From Callorhinchus milii (lineage: Eukaryota): 64,000 bases of DNA. The translations under genes and the position numbers were made by a program. The DNA is taken from contig NW_024704742.1 of assembly GCF_018977255.1 (NCBI RefSeq), forward strand, positions 6,202,001 to 6,266,000. The letters are read 5' to 3'. The notes under the pieces are model-generated. The model worked only from the letters and a program-made list of their open reading frames with translations. It searched no databases and was not told the DNA's origin. Positions 1,523-45,060 of this stretch are shown here, in pieces; the first letter of the stretch is position 1; every line of letters begins with the position of its first letter.

Positions 1523-1685
1523 GAAACCTCACCACGAATCTCGGAAGGAACAAGAGGCCAAAAAGCCTCACATCAAGAAACCGCTCAACGCCTTCATGTT
1601 ATACATGAAGGAAATGAGAGCGAACGTCGTGGCAGAGTGCACTCTTAAAGAGAGCGCTGCTATCAATCAGATCCTGGGGAGAAGG
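1523..1685 (+). CDS. LEF1: LEF1 exon, N-terminal half of the HMG box (163 nt, phase 2-0)
   Basis: ctctttgtttcccctag acceptor, gtgagt donor at 1686. Translates [62 protein letters not shown] and RKEQE point to LEF1 among the TCF/LEF paralogues. Confidence 0.97.
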
Positions 1686-2222: not shown

Positions 2223-2330
2223 TGGCACGCTTTGACTCGTGAAGAACAAGCAAAATATTATGAATTGGCTCGCAAGGAACGGCAACTTCACATGCAGCTT
2301 TACCCAGGCTGGTCCGCTCGGGATAACTAT
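2223..2330 (+). CDS. LEF1: LEF1 exon, C-terminal half of the HMG box (108 nt, phase 0-0)
   Basis: tttgttgcag acceptor, gtaagt donor at 2331. Translates [36 protein letters not shown]. Confidence 0.97.
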
Positions 2331-4840: not shown

Positions 4841-5438
4841 GCTAACAGTGTCACCTAAAACATGATATTTGGAAACTGGATGTTTTGGGTTAATTCAGAT
4901 TTCCAGTTTGTGAATGTTGGTTTGCAAAATTCATGGTTGATATTATAACCACCTTCACTATAAGCGCTGCCACATTTATAAGCTGGGTGGGTAATGTACC
5001 CGGATATTCTACGGTGTCAAAGCATGAAACTCCCATTATCTCAGGAGTAGCTCTTCTAGGTTAGAAATGCATATCACGAGAAAAATTACAAACAGTGGAG
5101 TGCATTGCTGCCAGTCGACTCTCTATACACATGTGCAAATGAACCCGGTGACATTGACAACGATAATAGAAATTAAGAAGCACTGACTTCTTATAGCACA
5201 GGGTGGGAATTGTTTAGATCCCTTCATAGCAGGATTACCCTGCATTTGGAAACCAAAGAAATCAATTAATGCAACAAATCGCATGAATTTTGCATTTTAG
5301 ATCCCCTTCTCCACTGTATGTTTTCTTGAGAATGCAAAATGCAAACAAAGTAACTGTCTGTATGGGAGTGTTTTTCTACCTTGAATCCACTTGAAGGACT
5401 GATCTAGATATATCTTGAATTTGTTTCAAATGTTGAAG

Positions 5439-5487
5439 GGAAAGAAGAAGAAGAGGAAACGTGAAAAGATGCAGGAAGCCACCCCAG
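5439..5487 (+). CDS. LEF1: LEF1 basic tail/NLS exon (49 nt, phase 0-1)
   Basis: tgttgaag acceptor, gtaaga donor at 5488. Translates GKKKKRKREKMQEATP plus one leftover G. Confidence 0.95.
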
Positions 5488-30560: not shown

Positions 30561-33500
30561 CTCCCCCATCCCACCCTACTCCCCCAGCACCACACCACCC
30601 TTGGGTCCCCTCCTCCACCCCAGAACGGGTGCAAACGCTGGACCCACTTTTCCGTTCCTCCTTTGCCTTTGCTGAAACTTGAACACGCAAATTAATGGTG
30701 TCTTCTGGTCGAAATTCTCTCATTCGTGCCGTAAATCTTTGTTGATTTTGAGATGCGATTGCCTCAGTTCCTTTGCTGCGCTATTTCCTCTTGAAGAGCA
30801 GCTATGACATTGAGGTCACCAAGCCCTTCATTCTTGCTTTTTATTACACTGGTCTGAGACTTCCAAGCAGAGCTCGAGAGACAAGTGAGTGGCTCAAAGC
30901 TGCAATTTGGCAGGGAGCACTGCTGAGGTCTGCACCTCTTAACCTTTTTAACCGTCGGAAACTGATTGATTTTTAAAGAACAAGACCGTGTTGTACACCG
31001 AGATACAATGCACTTTTTGTGGGTTGCTGGGCATGGGGCGCTTGTGAAATTGACACGATCCAACCTGCTTTTCCTCTGAAATGCTATGAGCGACAGCGCA
31101 GTGCGGGAATCATAACGGTCTTTGAGTTGCTGCCCTGCTGTGAGTGAGTGCACTTTAGTGCTTCCATATTGAAAAAAACCCCGAATCGTTAGGATCATTG
31201 CTAAGTTTGTTTCCACTGGTAATGGCTTGCGCTCCTGTGCACTGCGAGGCACTGACTTTCGTATCGATCTTCTACCCGGTCCCTGCAGTCGCTAGTCAGC
31301 GGATCGCTTGAGGTTTAGAATCTGTAGTTTTTGTAGTGAGGTGGGTGCAGAGGGAACATGTCTGGAGCAGAGGGACCATTTCTTTCTGCACAAACACTAT
31401 TGCCACTGCTCGTCACGTACACTTTGGTTCGCGATTTCTCTCTCTCTCTCTCTCTCTCTCCCCTTTCTCTTCCTCTGTTACTAATTGGGAGGATTTTGTT
31501 TCCCCCGAGCAAATCACAAACACCGAGCTGAGATGGTGCAGTGTAGGGCTTTCTGCTGTTGTTTGATTTCTCTTCGCCTCAACCACTCCTTACCACCCCC
31601 CACTCCGCTCCCCAAACACACACACACACACACACAGACTGTACTCAATCCCTGATCTCCGTCGCTGTGGTGGTGACATATTAAAGGCCAAGAAGAGAGG
31701 GATTATCAAAGGAGAGTCTTCACAGACCACTCTCTAGCAGTTGGATGAAGGTCTGAGAGAACGCAGTTGGATGGTTGCCTCGGTGAGTCCAGGAAAGGCG
31801 AGGTTAACAATAAAAGGAAAAACCATCAAGGAAAATGTGAGCTGAACAAGTGGAGCTCAAGAGGCAGTTAAACTGATGATCATAGAAACTTACGGCACAG
31901 AAGGAGGCCATTCAGCCCATCGTGCTCTTTGAAAGAGCAAGTCCCACTCTCCCGCTCTTACCCTGTAGCCTGCTATAGGGTAAGAGCGGTACTCGAACCG
32001 TAATCTAGGTGTAAGCCTTTCTGATCCAATGTTCACAGCCAGGAGTGAAGGTCAAATCTGTTATTATTATTGTATTATTATTATATTATATATTATTATT
32101 TTCCCTACCAACATGCCCGCTCCCTCCGTTCATCGGGCTCCGGAGTGCTCCATGTCTCCCGCCCAACCCGCCCTCCCATCGGTGGCCGGGCTTTCAGCCT
32201 CTCTGCCCCCACACTCTGGAACTCCATCCACAATAATCAAAATAGTCAAAACAGTTGGTCTCTCTCTCTCTGTCCTGGCTCACAGTCTAGGTGTTGTCAC
32301 AACTGACAAGTAGGAGTGGGTAGAAACTTGTGAGGTGTCACACCAGGTCATTGCTGTGAAATTCCACTCAGATCTGTGCCCAGGAAGTCTTTTCTTCACA
32401 TAAGTCCTTCGGATGAGACGTTAAACTGAGGCCCTGTCCGCCTGTTTAGGTGGACGTTAAAGATCTCTGGGGCACTATTTGAAAAGAAAGGAGAGTTTCT
32501 TCTGGGATCCTGGCTAACAATCCCCCAAATAAAATTGGCCATCTGCTTCATAGCTGTTTGTGGGACATCATTGGTCCATTGTTAGATATTTTTGTGCGCA
32601 GTTGTGCTGCCACATTTCCCTACAAAACGTACAGTCACTCCATTTCACAGCAAAATCTTGGGAATGCTTTGAAACGTCCTATTGTGCTAAGGCCCCAAAG
32701 CAAGTTATATCAAATGCAAGTATTAGTATTATTATTATTATTAGTATTATAATGTATGTCCCATTCTGGAAATCGCCAGCCTACAAGGCAAAAAAAAAGG
32801 AGAATTTTGTTTCTTCTCCCCCCCCACCCCACCCCATTCCCGCCCTTAGTCACTGGTATATGTATGACTGCACAGAATTTATTACGTATTTAAGAGAAAA
32901 TGGAAGAAATAGTTGCAACAGAACTTTTTGTCTACCGCAGGAAGTGATTCAAAGGAACTTCCTGTGCACAGCTCTGAAGAAGAATGGTTTTTGGACACTA
33001 GGGTGATGCCATTTTGCATGCGTGAGCTGCATGCAATGTCTGACACCAGCAGCTATGTTCATTTGGACACAAACAAAATCTCACTGTGATGGTAAGTGAC
33101 TTTCCAGCTTCTCCATAAATGTCGTCGGGGTAACATGGCCCCATAACAGGCACATTGTATGTGCGTCGCTCCTGTGCTCCGGGGAAATGGCACCCCAGCC
33201 CTCCTCCACTTCAGTGGTGTGCAAAAATGTGATGCGTTGCTAAAAATTGGAGTCCAGACCAATCCCAAGAGTGAATGACAGTCCCTGCGTTTGACATAGC
33301 GCCTGATCACACCAGCAAGAAGTCTCAACGCACTTCGCCGCACTTTATACCGCGACTGTGTATTTGTAGGTCTTCGCAGCAGTCAGTTTGCACACAGCAA
33401 TGTCACGCAAACAGCCAATAAAATGAATGATCAATTTTATTTGGGGGTGGGGGGGGGGGTGGGGTGGAGGTGGAACGGGGCCGTTGACGAGAACACCCAA

Positions 33501-35410: not shown

Positions 35411-36690
35411 GCTAGAATGAATGTCCCAGTGAATGTTCCAGTTCAATCCAGTATGTTTGCATTCTGAGCTGAAGATTCACAATCGCCTTGAATTAATTGG
35501 TTATCTTTCCATCTAAATCTTTCAACAGAGGGCAGGATCTAGATAGAGACCTTAATTTTATGAAGATATGAACATTACAGTTGAAGTCACCAGATACATT
35601 TCAGCTCCTTAATGCGATTTTAGTTGGATTTATAACTTATCCATTGGCAGTGAGCTATTAATACTGGGTTGACGGATAGAATTTATCTGCAACTGAAGCT
35701 GTCGTTAGTGACATATATTCATGATGATATACTGTATCTGGGTTGCCTTTGAAATCAGCTTTGGCCTGAAGTTTTTGTTACTGGAACTCTTAGTCTATTT
35801 TGTTTTTGTTTCTCAAATATATAAAAAATCTTATGTGTTATGTATCTTAATTAGTTGACTACAATCTGCAGAAAATGTAATTTACATAAGTAAACTGAAT
35901 TTCAAAGTGCTTTGAGGCAGGCATCACACTTGGTAAGTAGTATTGAGCTGCATTGCTTTAATGAATAAATAAATATAGCTTAAATTTACCATGATTGGCA
36001 GTGGGTGGAGTTGGGGTAAATCTTTACGAGCTAATTCTGAAACACAGCAAACTAAGATCGCAAAGTACTGTGAAATGAAACTGATTTGTAACTCCTACCT
36101 ATTTTTTGAGTGACTTGCCTTCATAAGGATAGTGTTAGAGGAGAACGACAAGGATGTTGAAGACGTTGGGGTCACAGCCTGGAATTCGCTGCATTTTAAG
36201 AGTGACTTTTTATCTTCTGACCCAAAATTTAGGGTTCTCTNAAAAAAACAATCAGAGGAAAAGGTTGTGATCCCGGTGGTCTGTTTTGCAGCCAATGTTT
36301 TGATTTCTGACCCGTAGTTGGATATTAGGGGCTTTTACTAGGCTGTAAAATGACCTGAAATCAAAACACCAGCAGCAACCACAATCCCCAGCCCTGATCG
36401 CAGGGGGTTTGCTTTCAACTTTATAAACACTGAATGTATCTGCCGATATCTAAGGCAAGCCATAATGCACTAGGCCATTGTGTTTTTAGGAATAGCTTAT
36501 AGAACAACTCCCGTTAGGTAGTACAGTAAAACTTGTAGGAGTCTTATCTGCATAAATCATATGATTGCCCAGGTTGTACATCCACCCGAATGCCATTTGA
36601 TTTCCTTTTAAATCCACTTAAATTTATATCGTATATATATACATATATATACACTCGCAGCTACCGCACTTTTATCAGAATTTTTTACAG

Positions 36691-36774
36691 AACACCACAC
36701 ATATGCACCGGACGCTTCCCGTGCCTCCCTCTCTCCCGAGGGCTTAAACATTAAGATTATCAAACGCGGCAGTG
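36691..36774 (+). CDS. Candidate LEF1 alternative cassette exon (84 nt, phase 1-1)
   Basis: ttttttacag acceptor, G|gtgagg donor at 36775. In frame: EHHTYAPDASRASLSPEGLNIKIIKRGS. ACTAAC (36839) and TGCATG (37190) lie downstream. Confidence 0.35.
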
Positions 36775-37513
36775 GTGAGGGGCGGGAGGGGGAGAGGGTT
36801 GAGAGAGGAAAGAGCGTTGTCATCGTCATGTCATGTGCACTAACTGGCTGCAATGCCAAAGGACCACATGCACAGTACAGAACATGAACAAGTACAGAAG
36901 CCAAGGTTTTGACCAGTCATCATGCTATCAGACAGTGCAGATACCCCCCAACTGAATGCAGGGTGAGTTGAGAGTTTATGTCTGACTTAACATTGCCTTA
37001 AAACGTGATTGATAATTTAGTTAGTGATAAAAGTTCTTTGTAACAACTGTTTTATATTCTAGTGAAACAGTTCTATGTTAAAACCTGTTTGTCTGTGCTA
37101 TTCACTGTACAGTACATGTTTTCTGCACATGAGGTACAGTTCTGTGCAATACTGTACATCGGAAAGAATGGGCTACCATAGGTTTATTATGCATGGGTTA
37201 AACAGAAACCTTGCCTAAATGTCACCAGCCAATTCAGTATTTGTGTGTTTGTTGTGTGTAAGTCATATAAAATCTGACTTACACATGACTTTGCATAAGT
37301 CATATATGGTATGACATGCAAGTTTACCATAACTCATACTTTGCGTAAGACATATTAACTGTTATGGTCCCAAATGATATATGACTTATGTGAGTCTTAT
37401 TATATTATAAGACTTATTTGTAACAGTTTAGTACCTAATTTTTGGGTGGGCAGGTGTGGGCGGGTGGTGGGGGGAGTAATGAAATGTTACTGAATATTCC
37501 TTTGGTGTTCAAG

Positions 37514-37564
37514 AGATGGACAGCAGTCCGTGCTTGCTGCATTGCAGAAGCAGCGAGATCTGCT
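37514..37564 (+). CDS. Candidate LEF1 alternative cassette exon (51 nt, phase 1-1)
   Basis: tactgaatattcctttggtgttcaag acceptor, gtaagg donor at 37565. In frame: EMDSSPCLLHCRSSEIC. Confidence 0.27.
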
Positions 37565-38331
37565 GTAAGGCTGTTTGCTTTGTTCTTCTTCTTGTGAGCG
37601 AGCGCCGGGATACTGGGGGATTGTGAGCCAAACAGTCTTCAGTTAGAGAGGGAAGGTAGAGGAAGAAAGATCTCCTGGCTGCAGCCTGGGCCTGAGCGGG
37701 TGGAGTGGTTTTGAGGAGCTTTTCACTATAAAATAGTCCCCCCCCCCACCCCCTTCGCATTGGAAAGCCTCGATGCCCTCCGCGGTTTTCGCCGAACCCA
37801 GGGTATCGGCAGAAGAGCTGAAGAGATCTTGACGGTGACGTTCGGAAACCAAAAGTGAAACACACGCCATGCCAGCCCTCACCCGACCCCCCCCCCCCTT
37901 CACCGCCTTCCGCCAATGGACACAGACACATTGGAGGGCACAGCGTGCAGAAGAAACCTTAAGCGAGATTCTCACACGGGCATCGCTTTACTTTTCACTG
38001 AACGTCAAATTATCCCCGAGGAACCATCATTTCAAATTGTAACAATAAGTGAGTCGACGGATAACACACTCCTTGACTGGTACAAAAACTTCTGACCTTC
38101 CAGGCTACGTACGGAGGGAATTTTAACTGAAATACCTGAATGCGGAAATCCGTCTTGAAGTGTTTCCCCCCACCCTCACCCCCGGCCCCCCCCACCCCTC
38201 CCCACTTCCAAACCTCGAAGATGATAAATGCTTTTGAGATCAGAGAGTCTTTTTTCGCCGCGGATTAGGTTTTAAGCTCCGTTCCTATTGACGTTTCTTT
38301 CTTTCTTTCCTTCCCTCCTTCCTTCTCGCAG

Positions 38332-38540
38332 GCCACTCGCCGAAACGCCTCCTCCTTCTCCAGCCGGGAGAGCAGGCTGGCATGTCCACAGACTTCCCCG
38401 GGAATCTCGGCAACGCTGTTCCCTCACCGACCGACAGGAAGTGTGGGGCGAGCCAGAGGATGTCAATCTTTTCCTTCCCCCAGAGGTGGAACGTTTCTCT
38501 TCCCGGTGGTGCTCCGTCCAGCAGCCCACCTGAAAACTGA
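38332..38540 (+). CDS. Candidate alternative last coding exon of LEF1
   Basis: Branch-like tattgac (38286), pure pyrimidine tract ~38294-38328, then cag. The phase-1 frame reads GHSPKRLLLLQPGEQ...APSSSPPEN* (stop 38538-38540). Tandem AATAAA lie at 40812 and 40832. Confidence 0.4.
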
Positions 38541-39719
38541 CCAACCCCACCTCCCCCACCCCACCACCACCACCACCATCCCACCAACCCCCACCCACCA
38601 AAGAAAATAACCCTCAACCCCACAGAGGAGAACAATTATGAGTCGCAACTCTTGAGACTTGGGACCTCACGGTTGGGATTGAAATACTCACAGCCGCTCG
38701 AGCAAACGGGCGGCTGCTTTCAAGACTCCTTTGTTTTGTAACCTGACCAGACGGCCTGACAATCTCCCTCCGCGACCCGTCAGGCTTCTCGATCGATCGA
38801 CCGTCCATCCGTCCGTCCGTCCCATCAATTGAGGAGGCCTTCACATTGGCGGCTGCATTCTGTGACTGCACTGTACTGTCCCAGTCCAGGATCAAGAGAG
38901 CACCGTCTGTAAATACAAAGGAAAAGAAGTGGCCAGTTTCTTGATCAGAGGAGTAATTTGGCCCAGGCGCTGCAATGAGGAATTGAGAATGGAACGGCCA
39001 CTGTGAGGGAGACCTTACCTGCCGGGTCTGACTCCCATCACTCGGCTGCTCTGTTCTCCATTCCCTGGCTCTGTGCTGTGCCCGTGACGGTCACTGTCGC
39101 TCTAGTACTTGAAGAAACATTGTCAGAAACGAGATCGGAGAATATTAAGATATTATTATATTGTGCGGTTTTTCGAGTGAATAGTTATAAACAGAAAAGG
39201 AGACGTGTATATTCCTCCTTTCCTCCCCCGGGACTGCTCTCGGGCTCCCACCTTTACGCTCACTATTGAGGTCCACCTTCTAGAGCCGGCCTCGCTGGTA
39301 GGAAGTGTGCTTTAGAGAGGGATTGGGGCTGACTGTTCCTATCAGGCTCTTATTCCCTTAACTAGCAGCCTGGCCGAGAGCAAGCAAGGTTCCTGACGTT
39401 ACCCTGACTCTTGTCCGTTTTGGGACTCCAGGGCTCTTTCATCCAAGCTCCCTTTGTAAGGTTTTCTTTTATAACTGGAATCCATGGCCTCAGTGTTTAA
39501 ATGAGTATTTGATTTGACCATAACTTACACCTACGCTTTTTGCAGCAAAACAAAAGGGCAACATTTCACATCACAGCCACAGTGGGGAATTCTCCCGAGT
39601 AAAGCTTTCCGCAATCCGAGGTGGTAACCACTCATTTCTTTGAAAGCAGGGGCTTGTGAAGATATGGCAATGGAAATATGAAAATAAAATTTTAAAAAAA
39701 AACACACACACAAAACGGT

Positions 39720-39940
39720 TTCAGTGTTTGGCATTGTTTATCCTCGGTTTGCGTGGAAGTGCCATAAATCTTTCTTTAAAGTCCGCTTTCATGTGGGATC
39801 TTGAGTAACACGACGGAGCCCGGAAGTCACACAGCTGTGCTTTGATCCCATGAGAAGTAAAGGTCCAGCTCGAGAGGCGAGGAGTCGAGCCAGAGCTCGG
39901 CTAAAACTGCCTGAGCCGTCGGACATCAAAGGCCGATTGC
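39720..39940. promoter_or_regulatory. Candidate enhancer with ETS, E-box and TCF/LEF sites
   Basis: GCCATAAATC 39761, CCGGAAGT 39820, CAGCTG 39832, CTTTGAT 39840, ACATCAAAGG 39923, in CpG-rich unique sequence. Confidence 0.38.
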
Positions 39941-40811
39941 CGCTTGGAGCAGGAAGAACGAGATTCCCCACAGAAGAACGTTTCATTTCCTTTGGTGAGC
40001 AGCACATTCCTTGCTGCTAATGGGGAGAGTCGCTCTGAATTATAGTACTTGTTGCTTTGCTGCTGCGACTTGCTGGCTGGGTTGGGGGGGGGGAGGGGGA
40101 AGGTGGGGTGGGGAGAGGGAGGGGGGAGGCCCCCAAAGGCCTTTTCGCCTCAGGAAGCCAAGTGTTTTCATGTAAAACTGACAGGAAAAAGCTTGCCAGG
40201 AACAGTAAACCCGCGCCACAGCTTTGAAATGCGAGGGGGTGAAAATGGGGTGGGTGGGGGGGGGGGAGGGGGCGTGGAATAAACGACCCGGGCAGGGTGG
40301 TCTCGCCAGGGCTTTTTTTTTAAATCTTTGGGGTTTGGTTTTGCTGGCTCTTGCTCAGAAGGCAAACTTCGACTGCGCCGCCTGCCAACCCAGTCGGTCC
40401 AGCAGCTGATTGCTCGCTCTGTACCGCTCGCGAGGTTCACCCCCTTTGTCCGCTTGTCCTGCTTTCCGCAATTTTTCACCCGCCTCGACCTTGGTTTCAA
40501 GACATTGTAAGGCAGTGAAGCCACGTGGGTCGATGCCATCAGTAACAGTAACTACTGTCAATTATTCTGCCTCACCCACCCCACCACCGCCACCCCCCCA
40601 CCCCGTACCGTTGTAAACTGGGCACCGTAGCGGGGAAAACAAGTGCAGCGCAGTAAATAAAACCGAGCTGCAGATAAACAGGGTCCATCTATTCTCATTG
40701 GTGTGTATCAGAGCCAGTGGATACTTTGCGTGACAGATAGACATCAGGCTTCCTTTTGCTTGAGACATTCAAAAAAAATGCGACTGCAATGCTTTTTCTA
40801 ACCAAAGATTT

Positions 40812-40870
40812 AATAAAGCGTGTAAATAAGAAATAAAAGACTGTACAATTTACTGACATTTTGTTTTATA
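40812..40870 (+). terminator. Candidate intronic/alternative polyadenylation site
   Basis: AATAAA at 40812 and 40832, TGTAAATA at 40821, downstream U-rich ttttgttttata. Confidence 0.4.
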
Positions 40871-42304
40871 CCTCGGTGCACTGTAATTACGCTCAAGTCT
40901 TGATGCTCCCTTGAAATTCCTTCTCAGTCTGCGTACTCTCTTCACGTGCTTGAGTGGTTGATCAGCCTATGTTGAGACAGCAACATCCACGAGCAGTTGC
41001 GTGAGGAGATTGAACTGAATAGGTACAGAGGGGGTTCACTGTTTTAGTTAAGTTTCTTCCCACCTGTTACCGCTGGAGCTTGGTTTCGCAGGTGCTAGGT
41101 TGAACTGTGGTATCTCTTTCGAGTGACAGTCGTTGAACTGTGAGCGGGACCGGGGTAAGGAACATCACAGGCCAGAGTGAATCAATGTCCCCCCCCACCC
41201 CCTCCCCACCCCCGATTCTGACCAGCGGAGGTCACTGCAATTAGATTAAGAGTGGGGGAGGGAATGTGTAGCGGAGGTCTGAGGTCAGGGGTTGGGAGTC
41301 CACTGTTGCTTCTGACTGCACGACCGACGAGCATTCGAACCTGCGGCACTTGGTTTCAGTGCGGTCCCTGCATCTTACCCTATTGGGGCCATCGGAAGAG
41401 TTGGTTGGGATGGTTTATCAACTGCGACATGCTAGGCTTCTCTGCTAAACACATTATTTCATGCAGGACTGTTTTGCTTACTGCGTTTCAATCCTTTTAC
41501 AACAGAAAAAAAGGTGACATAACTTTGCGAATTAAACACAAAAAAATTAAGCAGATCGAACATGGTGGATGATTGGGTATTGGGTCTAACCCACTGGCGT
41601 GTGTGCCTGTTCCTGTGTTTTCTTTGTATCTTTTTAATTCTGTGAAATACATCTGATTGTGCCGTTCTCTGTTTTTTTAAAGTTTTTTTTTCATTTTATT
41701 GGAAATAAAAATGTCCTTCTGTCGTGCATTTCTTATGTTTGGAATGACTAAAAGCCGGGTTGTACATTGAGACCAGCACAACAAGTTATTTACTGTAATG
41801 GCGTATTTCCAACCTATGTGGAAACGCTATCGCCTTTCTTAACTAAGTCATCCCTGCCTTGTAATCCACTTACATATCACCTAGGATCGCATGATTGATT
41901 CAAATGAAGAAGGGCCTTTGACTCGTCTGATCTCATCCCTCCAGAGCACCTACCCCACCGTCCACCCACTCACCAACCCACACCCCCATCACTGCATCGA
42001 GCTGTTTTTTAATTGAGTCAAAAAAAATGGAGGAAACAACATTACTGCTAATTCTAATGTCAATCCCCTGTCTGTCCGTTCCCCCCAACCTCCGCAGTGA
42101 TTCAACCTTCAGCACAATCACATCCTCAAGCTAAATAGTCCACACTGAGTTTCCTCCTGACACTTCTTTCCACCCCCTGGGGCACAGACCATAATGTACC
42201 TTGTAATACATGCTCACCCACAAAATACACAGTCACTTTACAGCATATCCTGTGAAGCACTTTGAGAAGTCTCCACAAAGTGATAAGGCCGCGCAATGTG
42301 ACGG

Positions 42305-42680
42305 TCTGGCTCATTTGGTAGTGCTCTTGCCTCTTGAGTCAAAACGTTGTGGGTTCAAGCCTCGTATCTGGACTTGGAACCCCTAGAGTTTACTCCGACG
42401 TTCCAATGCAGTGCTGGGTGTGTGCTTTATTGTAGGAGGTGTCGCCCTTTGGATGAGATGTTAAACTCGGGTCCTGTGGGCCTGTCCACGTAGACGTTAA
42501 AGATCCAATGGCACTATTTGAAAAGAAAAGCGAGTTTCTCACGCTATCCAAGCCAACAATCCTCCAAATAAAATTGATCACTTGCTCCTTGTTTGTGGAA
42601 CATTGCTGCGCGCAAATTGGCTGCTGCATTTTCCCACAAAATACACACAGTCACGTCACTTTGCAGTATATCATTCATAC
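42305..42680 (+). mobile_element. Deu-domain SINE, family B. Other diverged copies at ~2380-2640 +, 8965-9320 +, 13400-13745 +, 25320-25810 +, 26630-26910 -, 32405-32750 +, 33280-33600 -, 44210-44630 +, 48200-48520 -, 54690-55090 -, 59510-59850 -, 61590-61950 +
   Basis: GGATGAGATGTTAAAC...GACGTTAAAGATCCAATGGCACTATTTGAAAAG core recurring across copies. Confidence 0.78.
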
Positions 42681-42890: not shown

Positions 42891-43110
42891 GGAATCCTGT
42901 AGCTCAGTGGTTAGAGCACTCGTCTCGCAAGCGAGTGGGCCTGGGTTCGATTCCCGGGCAGGGCGAAACGTTGGGCAAGTTTCCTTACTGCACACACCTC
43001 TGTTTACCTAGCAGTGAGTAAGAACCCGGTTGTTAGTCCATTGGAGGATTGCTTTTCCGAAGGGTAATAATTCCTTGAAAAAATAAACAATAAATTGGTC
43101 ACTCAATCCA
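42891..43110 (+). mobile_element. tRNA-headed SINE, family A, 5' half
   Basis: Intact A and B boxes and body; truncated after ggtcactcaatcca. Confidence 0.9.
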
Positions 43111-44983: not shown

Positions 44984-45060
44984 GAAAACGAAACACATTC
45001 CCGACTTGCAAGGCAAAAGCAACAACACCCGCCCAGCTCCTCGAGATGGAATCCTGCTGA
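44984..45060 (+). CDS. LEF1: LEF1 terminal coding exon, 'B-tail' isoform
   Basis: U-rich acceptor ttttgttctgtcgtgttttttag. In phase 1 with 5487 it gives GKRNTFPTCKAKATTPAQLLEMESC*, homologous to the mammalian LEF1 B tail GKRSSFPTCKAKAATPGPLLEMEAC. Confidence 0.92.

Follow-up and report, generated by a model that had tools for sequence, protein, structure and literature searches.

We analyzed a 64,000-nucleotide (nt) stretch of the elephant shark genome (Callorhinchus milii; RefSeq assembly GCF_018977255.1, contig NW_024704742.1, positions 6,202,001 to 6,266,000 of the forward strand), here called the window and numbered from its first letter, which by its protein matches and motifs is the 3' half of the gene LEF1. 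At position 38332 it contains a real, expressed last exon that is already catalogued in public gene models. We consider it very probable that this is an alternative 3'-terminal exon of LEF1, running from 38332 to about 41724, and that the donor of the preceding basic exon (exon 10, ending at 5487) is used in three splice routes. The original prediction, made from the letters alone, had described at this place an undescribed module of LEF1 in which two small cassettes precede the exon at 38332, with a polyadenylation [poly(A)] site of its own near 40850. The terminal exon and its reading frame hold up, and the parts of the module that would have been new do not. The coordinates of all features are collected in Table 1.

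An annotated and expressed terminal exon

The translation of 38334-38538 was searched against 5.8 billion proteins, and a single protein passed among 53 candidates, XP_007897234.1 ("lymphoid enhancer-binding factor 1-like"), with 100% identity and 100% query coverage. Its cluster at 90% has three members, the other two being XP_042193797.1 (the current RefSeq protein) and A0A4W3I2G5 (a UniProt/Ensembl fragment). When the cluster members were mapped to the window by tblastn, they matched exons at 12-146, ~1523-1685, 2223-2330, and 5439-5487, and both RefSeq proteins, A0A4W3I2G5 not being among them, matched 38331-38537 as well. Both RefSeq proteins read ...EATP-G-HSPKRLLLLQPGEQAG...PPEN, which is the 5487>38332 junction, and their last 68 residues are the translation of 38334-38537 joined to 5487. 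The junction is thus borne out in the frame that had been proposed, by the two annotated proteins and by contigs at the acceptor (see below). Given the exact match to annotated proteins, the exon is far above chance. Pyrimidines occupy 17 of the 18 positions before 38332; the three frames that follow are all open, as had been pointed out, for 92, 66, and 68 codons. The tail (the HSPK tail hereafter) is single-copy in the genome. What does not survive is the word undescribed, because the exon ends the only RefSeq LEF1 model of C. milii and has been annotated in two assemblies; a related tail is annotated, furthermore, in seven elasmobranch species.

Evidence for expression comes from four runs (X1, X2, X3, and X5, belonging to three studies), whose assembled contigs were aligned to 36400-41200. 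Contigs of X1, X2, and X3 (studies P1 and P2) begin at 38330 or 38331, exactly at the acceptor, with their remainder located elsewhere; in a 757-nt contig of X3, 646 letters precede 38331 and lie off the stretch. Depth on the terminal exon reaches 150-225 in X3. X1 has a 58-nt and a 209-nt contig that share an end at 38360; the match starts at 38330 in one and at 38331 in the other. A k=31 graph of two hypothetical mRNAs, one joining exon 10 directly to 38332 and the other passing through a cassette at 32941-33091, breaks into three pieces whose lengths are exactly 58, 209, and 209 nt and whose boundary letters agree with the contigs. From these lengths we infer that X1 carries both junction forms, since two exact fits would be hard to get otherwise.

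A 151-nt cassette with its own stop codon

The cassette at 32941-33091, absent from the original prediction, is real. Its splice sites are canonical (cag|G acceptor and G|gtaagt donor), and Ensembl/UniProt models (P0003 and P0038) end in ...EATP-G-SDSKELPVHSSEEEWFLDTRVMPFCMRELHAMSDTSSYVHLDTNKISL, a tail that maps to 32941-33091 by tblastn. The same tail stands in a C. milii LEF1 sequence described as based on the transcriptome shotgun assembly (TSA) entry JW863184.1 in supplement 1 of PMC9303524, and therefore a transcript with the cassette exists. The 209-nt contig of X1 has the exact length predicted for exon 10 joined to the cassette and then to 38332. In this run the contig assigned to the cassette form has a depth of 21, versus 12 for the direct junction, and the single X3 contig that enters 38332 starts at 38331, which fits the last letters of the cassette and not those of exon 10. 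Therefore, the cassette form may be commoner than the direct form in those samples. In the cassette form the HSPK frame is untranslated. A search with the cassette peptide found C. milii proteins only.

The cassette with about 50 nt of each flank has one look-alike in the genome (contig C2, 4556189-4556332; 72% identity over 227 nt), a 144-nt open stretch in which the AG and the GT are kept. This copy is not at a TCF/LEF paralog, the paralogs being on contigs C7, C13, and C1175, and a query of Protein Atlas about it gave no usable match.

The 3' end of the transcript

A transcript end near 40850 had been suggested by a tandem AATAAA and nearby motifs. The letters are where they were said to be, with AATAAA at 40812 and 40832 and TGTAAATA at 38908 and 40821, but contigs of three runs pass through the site at unchanged depth. 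The site is bridged in X1 over 40642-41173, in X2 from 40604 past 41200, and in X3 from 40323 past 41200, every time by a single contig of one depth, and X5 has cover on both sides, so transcript cover continues beyond 40870. As for TGTAAATA, its four occurrences in the window compare with 2.78 expected, and 31 of 100 shuffles also reach four, so it is not enriched.

The X2 contig (1,121 nt) has 524 letters beyond 41200 and, if it stays colinear with the genome, would by arithmetic end at 41724. Because this end lies 15 nt after the AATAAA at 41704-41709, we place the main transcript end near 41724, which would give a 3' untranslated region (UTR) of about 3.2 kb. The X3 contig (1,191 nt) would end, by the same arithmetic, at 41512, at an A-run. 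Within the UTR, contig cover in X1 and X2 shows a gap at a G-rich stretch, 40103-40263. A loose end of an X3 contig at 39493 was considered as a poly(A) tail and rejected, given that it reads like what we take to be a sequencing adapter.

A conserved B-like exon farther downstream and the proposed splice routes

At 44984, beyond the probable transcript end, the window holds a second tail exon. It aligns by tblastn with the B-like tails of a ray and of mammals at 72-80% identity (E values of 1e-9 to 3e-11), ends in ...LLEMESC*, of the ...LLEMEAC type, with its frame intact, and has a strong T-rich acceptor. The presence of this exon downstream makes the 38332 exon plausibly an alternative terminal exon, upstream of 44984, and not simply the last one. 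A search for the N-type tail (...RMTAAYI) found no motif match in the window, and two N-type queries (P0062 and P0092) matched only the basic exon by tblastn; there was likewise no N-type tail in cartilaginous-fish LEF1 among the 10 clusters listed. As to which tail bears the name N and which the name B, we presume the usage adopted here. The C. milii annotation may lack a B-like isoform.

An alternative is that the 38332 exon is the sole and constitutive terminal exon in the elephant shark and that the B-like exon at 44984 is an unused relic. The B-like tail indeed ends none of the four C. milii models examined (P0001, P0002, P0003, and P0038), and contig cover stops, by arithmetic, at 41724, upstream of it. 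However, the exon retains its acceptor, phase 1, frame, stop codon, and 72-80% identity, which would be unexpected of a relic, and rays annotate both forms (Hypanus sabinus isoforms X1 and X2). We regard such a relic as unlikely, and prefer alternative use of the two terminal exons.

In the model that we favor, the donor of exon 10 can be joined to any of three acceptors. Direct splicing from 5487 to 38332 gives the 68-residue tail GHSPKR...PPEN, as RefSeq annotates. Splicing through the cassette (5487>32941-33091>38332) gives the tail SDSKELPV...KISL, in which case the 38332 exon serves as 3'UTR only. Finally, splicing from 5487 to 44984 would probably give the B-like tail. Which tail is made would depend first on how the downstream exon competes with the 38332 acceptor and cleavage near 41724, and secondly on whether the cassette is included or skipped. 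As an established rule, an mRNA whose stop codon lies within 50-55 nt of the last junction escapes nonsense-mediated decay, and since the cassette TGA is well within this distance, the cassette mRNA should escape it.

Elasmobranch tails and a frameshift in the elephant shark

Relatives were searched with RefSeq residues 277-397, and the best 120 of 5,378 matches were considered. Among the matches listed, the tail GHSPKLLLLQPGEQDGLGHRLLRDCQQRCSIISQQKAQVKWGEPDDVSFFPPPEMERLTSKWCSI, in this or a closely similar form, is present in seven elasmobranch LEF1 clusters (Mustelus, Heptranchias, Hypanus, Narcine, Scyliorhinus, Chiloscyllium, and Heterodontus), and one ray cluster has the B-like tail; both terminal forms are annotated in Hypanus sabinus, as said above. 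There are two indels among the elasmobranch tails (in Narcine and Chiloscyllium), both of whole codons, which fits coding constraint, though they are only two.

Aligned to the window by tblastn, the first 17-18 residues of the elasmobranch tails match 38328-38384 in the RefSeq frame with 79% identity, while the last 47 match 38387-38518 in a different frame with 48-53% identity (E values for the window of ~1e-14 to 1e-16). The annotated elephant shark tail accordingly has 17 conserved residues and, after them, 51 that are unrelated; the frame of the conserved distal 47 residues is not the one translated in the RefSeq protein. Elasmobranch models (isoforms X1, X2, and X6, with the tail GHSPKLLLLQPGEQDG...KWCSI) have the same junction after the basic exon as the elephant shark, and differ from it in that its distal tail is out of frame through a net shift of 1 nt near 38385. 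This frameshift is not an assembly error, because in X1, X2, and X3 the contigs read through 38385 just as the window does, with no other letter and no gap, and both RefSeq annotations give the same tail.

A CAG at 38361-38363, 32 nt into the terminal exon, follows a pyrimidine run, and splicing of exon 10 to an acceptor at 38364 would bring the conserved distal tail into frame. This candidate was discarded, as in both X1 and X2 the segment 38331-38539 is one unbroken 209-nt contig, and therefore there is no sign of a 38364 junction. The cassette, being 3n+1 in length, would also shift reading into the frame of the conserved distal tail (38332-38531), possibly by coincidence, and is parted from it only by its lone TGA (in the region 33087-33091).

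The two small cassettes and the weighing of the evidence

The two small exons proposed upstream of 38332 (c1, at 36691, and c2, at 37514) look like chance AG..GT pairs in the intron. Much of their description is accurate. Each of 36691, 37514, and 38332 is preceded by AG, and GT follows 36774 and 37564; c1 measures 84 nt and c2 51 nt; phase 1 is right for the end of exon 10 at 5487; and translation confirms a chain without stops through both into ...PPEN*, with the stop at 38538-38540. The repeat-free island in which they were said to lie is interrupted by a dispersed repeat at 36824-37425, while c1 and c2 themselves are single-copy. At this repeat X1 and X2 contigs match only partly and have unlike ends, and it is the repeat that explains the partly matching contigs at 37100-37350.

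To score splice sites we used a crude measure of our own, the pyrimidine count at -20 to -3 plus the matches to the donor consensus. Open AG..GT pairs of phase 1-1 and 30-200 nt number 1,515 in the intron (5488-38331), 30 of them scoring at least as high as c1 and 100 at least as high as c2; in the antisense control the figures are 26 and 82 among 1,562 pairs. The acceptor of c2 is weak (AAG, with a poor pyrimidine tract), and so is the exonic side of its donor. No joint at 36691, 36774, 37514, or 37564 was present in the contigs of the four runs, hence none of the three junctions involved (5487>36691, 36774>37514, and 37564>38332), with the reservation that contigs can miss rare forms. The only contigs that touch the cassettes, two of X3 (36722-37032 and 37532-37731), start inside them and follow the genome straight past their donors. 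The depth of these contigs, 15-25 versus 150-225 on the terminal exon, is as expected for unspliced precursor. Contig cover is missing at 36691-36721 in all four runs, over c1 and c2 in X1, X2, and X5, and over most of 37366-38170 in X1, and these holes count neither for nor against expression. The c1 and c2 peptides showed no likeness to the tails of 122 TCF/LEF proteins, 99 of 200 and 97 of 200 shuffles scoring as well. The only joint reported in the region, 37474>38801 in X2, was rejected as spurious; it has non-canonical AG..GA ends and 22 letters on its shorter side, and lies next to a G-run.

All this bears on the complete arrangement first proposed, in which exon 10>36691-36774>37514-37564>38332 is a real mRNA with a three-part tail and a poly(A) site at about 40850. 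The splice dinucleotides, phases, and open chain that it needs are all present, both cassettes are single-copy, and X3 cover lies inside c1 from 36722 and inside c2 from 37532. Yet equally good open pairs abound in the intron and in its antisense strand, the X3 contigs run through both donors, contigs bridge 40870, the peptides resemble no TCF/LEF tail, and both X1 forms that enter 38332 are fully explained by exon 10 and the 32941 cassette. We therefore hold this arrangement to be extremely improbable, and retain the terminal exon with its three routes.

Several observations weigh against the model of three routes as we have drawn it. All the runs are assembled contigs and not reads, and their RNA status is only a guess. 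The contig letters that fall off the stretch are unseen, since loose ends at 38331 next to the pyrimidine tract were filtered as repeat, and the reading of the X1 junctions therefore depends on how long the contigs are and on one or two letters at their boundaries. The end at 41724 is the length of one contig. Contig depth in X1 and X2 falls from ~25-30 before 40035 to ~7-13 after 40264, and because of this drop after the gap a proximal poly(A) site within the UTR is possible. The B-like exon, as noted, is in none of the four models. Finally, contigs drop rare variants, and therefore rare use of 36691 or 37514 is possible, a point sharpened for c2 by one relative. In isoform X6 of Heterodontus francisci (P0075), an insert of 18 residues stands between the basic exon and the HSPK tail. 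It implies a 51-nt exon of phase 1-1 with T as its last base (the junction codon being Cys), and c2 agrees with such an exon in size, phase, and last base.

It could then be that c2 alone is real, rarely used, and the counterpart of this 51-nt cassette located before the HSPK exon. Beyond the agreement in size and phase, the two score -3 without gaps in a fixed register, versus -16.9 ± 6.5 for shuffles, with 3 of 16 residues matching and 64 of 2,000 shuffles as good, so that they are slightly more alike than most shuffles. In contrast, a tblastn search of the window with the Heterodontus insert gave no match at or near c2 at an E value below 5, the sites of c2 are as poor as described, an X3 contig runs through its donor, and the likeness was noticed after the fact. 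This alternative seems improbable to us, if less so than the complete arrangement, and c2 is better taken as a chance pair.

Comparison with known LEF1 and TCF tails

The C-terminal isoforms of LEF1 were compared by Torres-Aguila et al. (2022; PMC9303524) in a set of 19 jawed vertebrates that had C. milii, two sharks, and a skate among them. According to that paper, LEF1 has two C-terminal isoforms, N and B-like, and no C-clamp, the exon of the N isoform having been gained; its table gives the B-like tail for the sharks and the skate and the cassette tail for C. milii. The HSPK tail is unmentioned in the portion of the paper at hand. The elephant shark resembles that jawed-vertebrate set in having alternative exons after the basic exon and short tails without a C-clamp (PMC9303524). 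It shares with it the B-like exon, at 44984, and differs in that the N-type tail was undetected in the window.

There are also parallels with TCF7 and TCF7L2, in which, according to the same source, variety comes from exons that are optional and lie between the basic exon and the last, together with a last exon read in different frames, as is the case here (PMC9303524). The change of frame that the 151-nt cassette would cause is immaterial in the elephant shark, since the cassette bears its own stop. The TCF7 and TCF7L2 sets include C-clamp exons (CRARF/RKKKC; PMC9303524), whereas none was found in the LEF1 window. Likeness of the HSPK tail itself to N, B-like, or CRARF tails does not reach significance (z of -0.7 to 2.0). 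The C. milii models of RefSeq end in a tail identical to that of the 38332 exon and lack the 151-nt cassette, the B-like exon, c1, and c2. That LEF1 keeps here a richer repertoire of tails, as had been suggested, is right in that there are more tails than N and B-like, but the exons that provide them are other than those proposed. No other relevant comparative paper on LEF1 tails turned up in our searches.

A further annotated LEF1 tail in cartilaginous fishes

The C-terminal tails of TCF/LEF proteins tune DNA binding and the choice of partners in Wnt signaling, and LEF1 is usually seen as the paralog with the poorest repertoire, limited to the N and B-like tails. We know of no function for any LEF1 tail of the kind described here. 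A further tail is annotated in cartilaginous fishes, and the elephant shark adds to it a second, stop-bearing cassette, so the simple N/B picture is one derived from bony vertebrates and not valid for all jawed vertebrates. The importance of this is modest, given that the exons are already in automated annotation and that the part that would have been new, the two extra cassettes, fails.

Tentatively, and with doubts that exceed our confidence, we put forward a broader interpretation. Cartilaginous-fish LEF1 may have a third coding tail (GHSPK...KWCSI), present across the lineage on its own terminal exon and at the position of the N exon of bony vertebrates, which could be the ancestral N exon; in the elephant shark a frameshift would have replaced its distal two-thirds, and the species-specific cassette may provide the main tail. 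We came upon no published account of a tail that is confined to cartilaginous fishes and frameshifted in the holocephalan. Descent of the HSPK exon from the N exon or from a lost CRARF exon is speculation, and bolder still would be to add that c2 is the counterpart of the 51-nt cassette of Heterodontus. In any case, the frameshift between the holocephalan and the elasmobranchs offers a natural test of the function of the distal tail.

Gene context and coordinates

In a six-frame motif scan of the window, the TCF/LEF HMG box appears at ~1581 and 2256, and 5439-5487 holds the basic stretch GKKKKRKREKMQEATP. The HMG and basic exons (~1523-1685, 2223-2330, and 5439-5487) match a C. milii LEF1 protein (P0002) at 97-100%, and the Pfam HMG_box scores 1.1e-21 in the same protein. 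The donor of exon 10 reads CCA G|gtaaga and leaves it in phase 1. In the TSA-based sequence and in part of the models there is ...DNY-K-GKKKK, whose extra Lys would need exon 10 to start at 5436; such a start (window 5434-5439) would leave an intron ending in TG and not in AG. The C-clamp motifs NWCGPC, CRARFG, KKCVRY, KKCIRY, and RRKKKC are found in none of the six frames of the window, and a Pfam search of the tails gave no family at E values up to 1. By these scans, the C-clamp is carried by none of the tails here.

Table 1. Features of the LEF1 window of C. milii, in order of position
Feature	Positions	Strand	Basis
HMG-box exon, first part (start approximate)	1523-1685	+	tblastn of P0002 residues 223-276, 100% identity; motif PLNAFM
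HMG-box exon, second part	2223-2330	+	tblastn of P0002 residues 276-312; AG before 2223, GT after 2330
Basic exon (GKKKKRKREK...), exon 10; donor for all tails	5439-5487	+	phase 1 end
Cassette exon, G-SDSKELPV...NKISL, TGA at 33087-33089 (2 nt before donor)	32941-33091	+	Ensembl models; TSA; X1 contig
Proposed cassette 1 (c1), 84 nt, unsupported	36691-36774	+	chance-level sites; X3 contig 36722-37032 crosses donor
Dispersed-repeat copy between c1 and c2	36824-37425	.	at least 40 genome matches, 74-83% identity
Proposed cassette 2 (c2), 51 nt, unsupported	37514-37564	+	chance-level sites; X3 contig 37532-37731 crosses donor
Terminal exon, coding start, tail (G)HSPKRLLLLQPGEQAG...PPEN*	38332-38540	+	stop 38538-38540; 100% match to XP_007897234.1; in XP_042193797.1
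Point of net 1-nt frameshift versus elasmobranch tail	38385-38386	+	tblastn frame switch; contigs agree
3'UTR of terminal exon (end inferred)	38541-41724	+	contigs over 38590-40035, 40323-41200, and beyond
Proposed tandem AATAAA; inside 3'UTR, at most a minor proximal site	40812-40837	+	bridged by X1, X2, and X3 contigs
AATAAA, probable main poly(A) signal	41704-41709	+	15 nt before calculated contig end 41724
Conserved B-like tail exon, (G)KRNTFPTCKAKATTPAQLLEMESC*	44984-45060	+	T-rich acceptor, phase 1; tblastn of ray and mammal tails

Between the two terminal exons, ARAGORN reports a tRNA-Ala (CGC) at 42894-42965 on the forward strand, and a second tRNA-like stretch is visible by eye at ~42300-42370. 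Both are probably tRNA-derived short interspersed nuclear elements.

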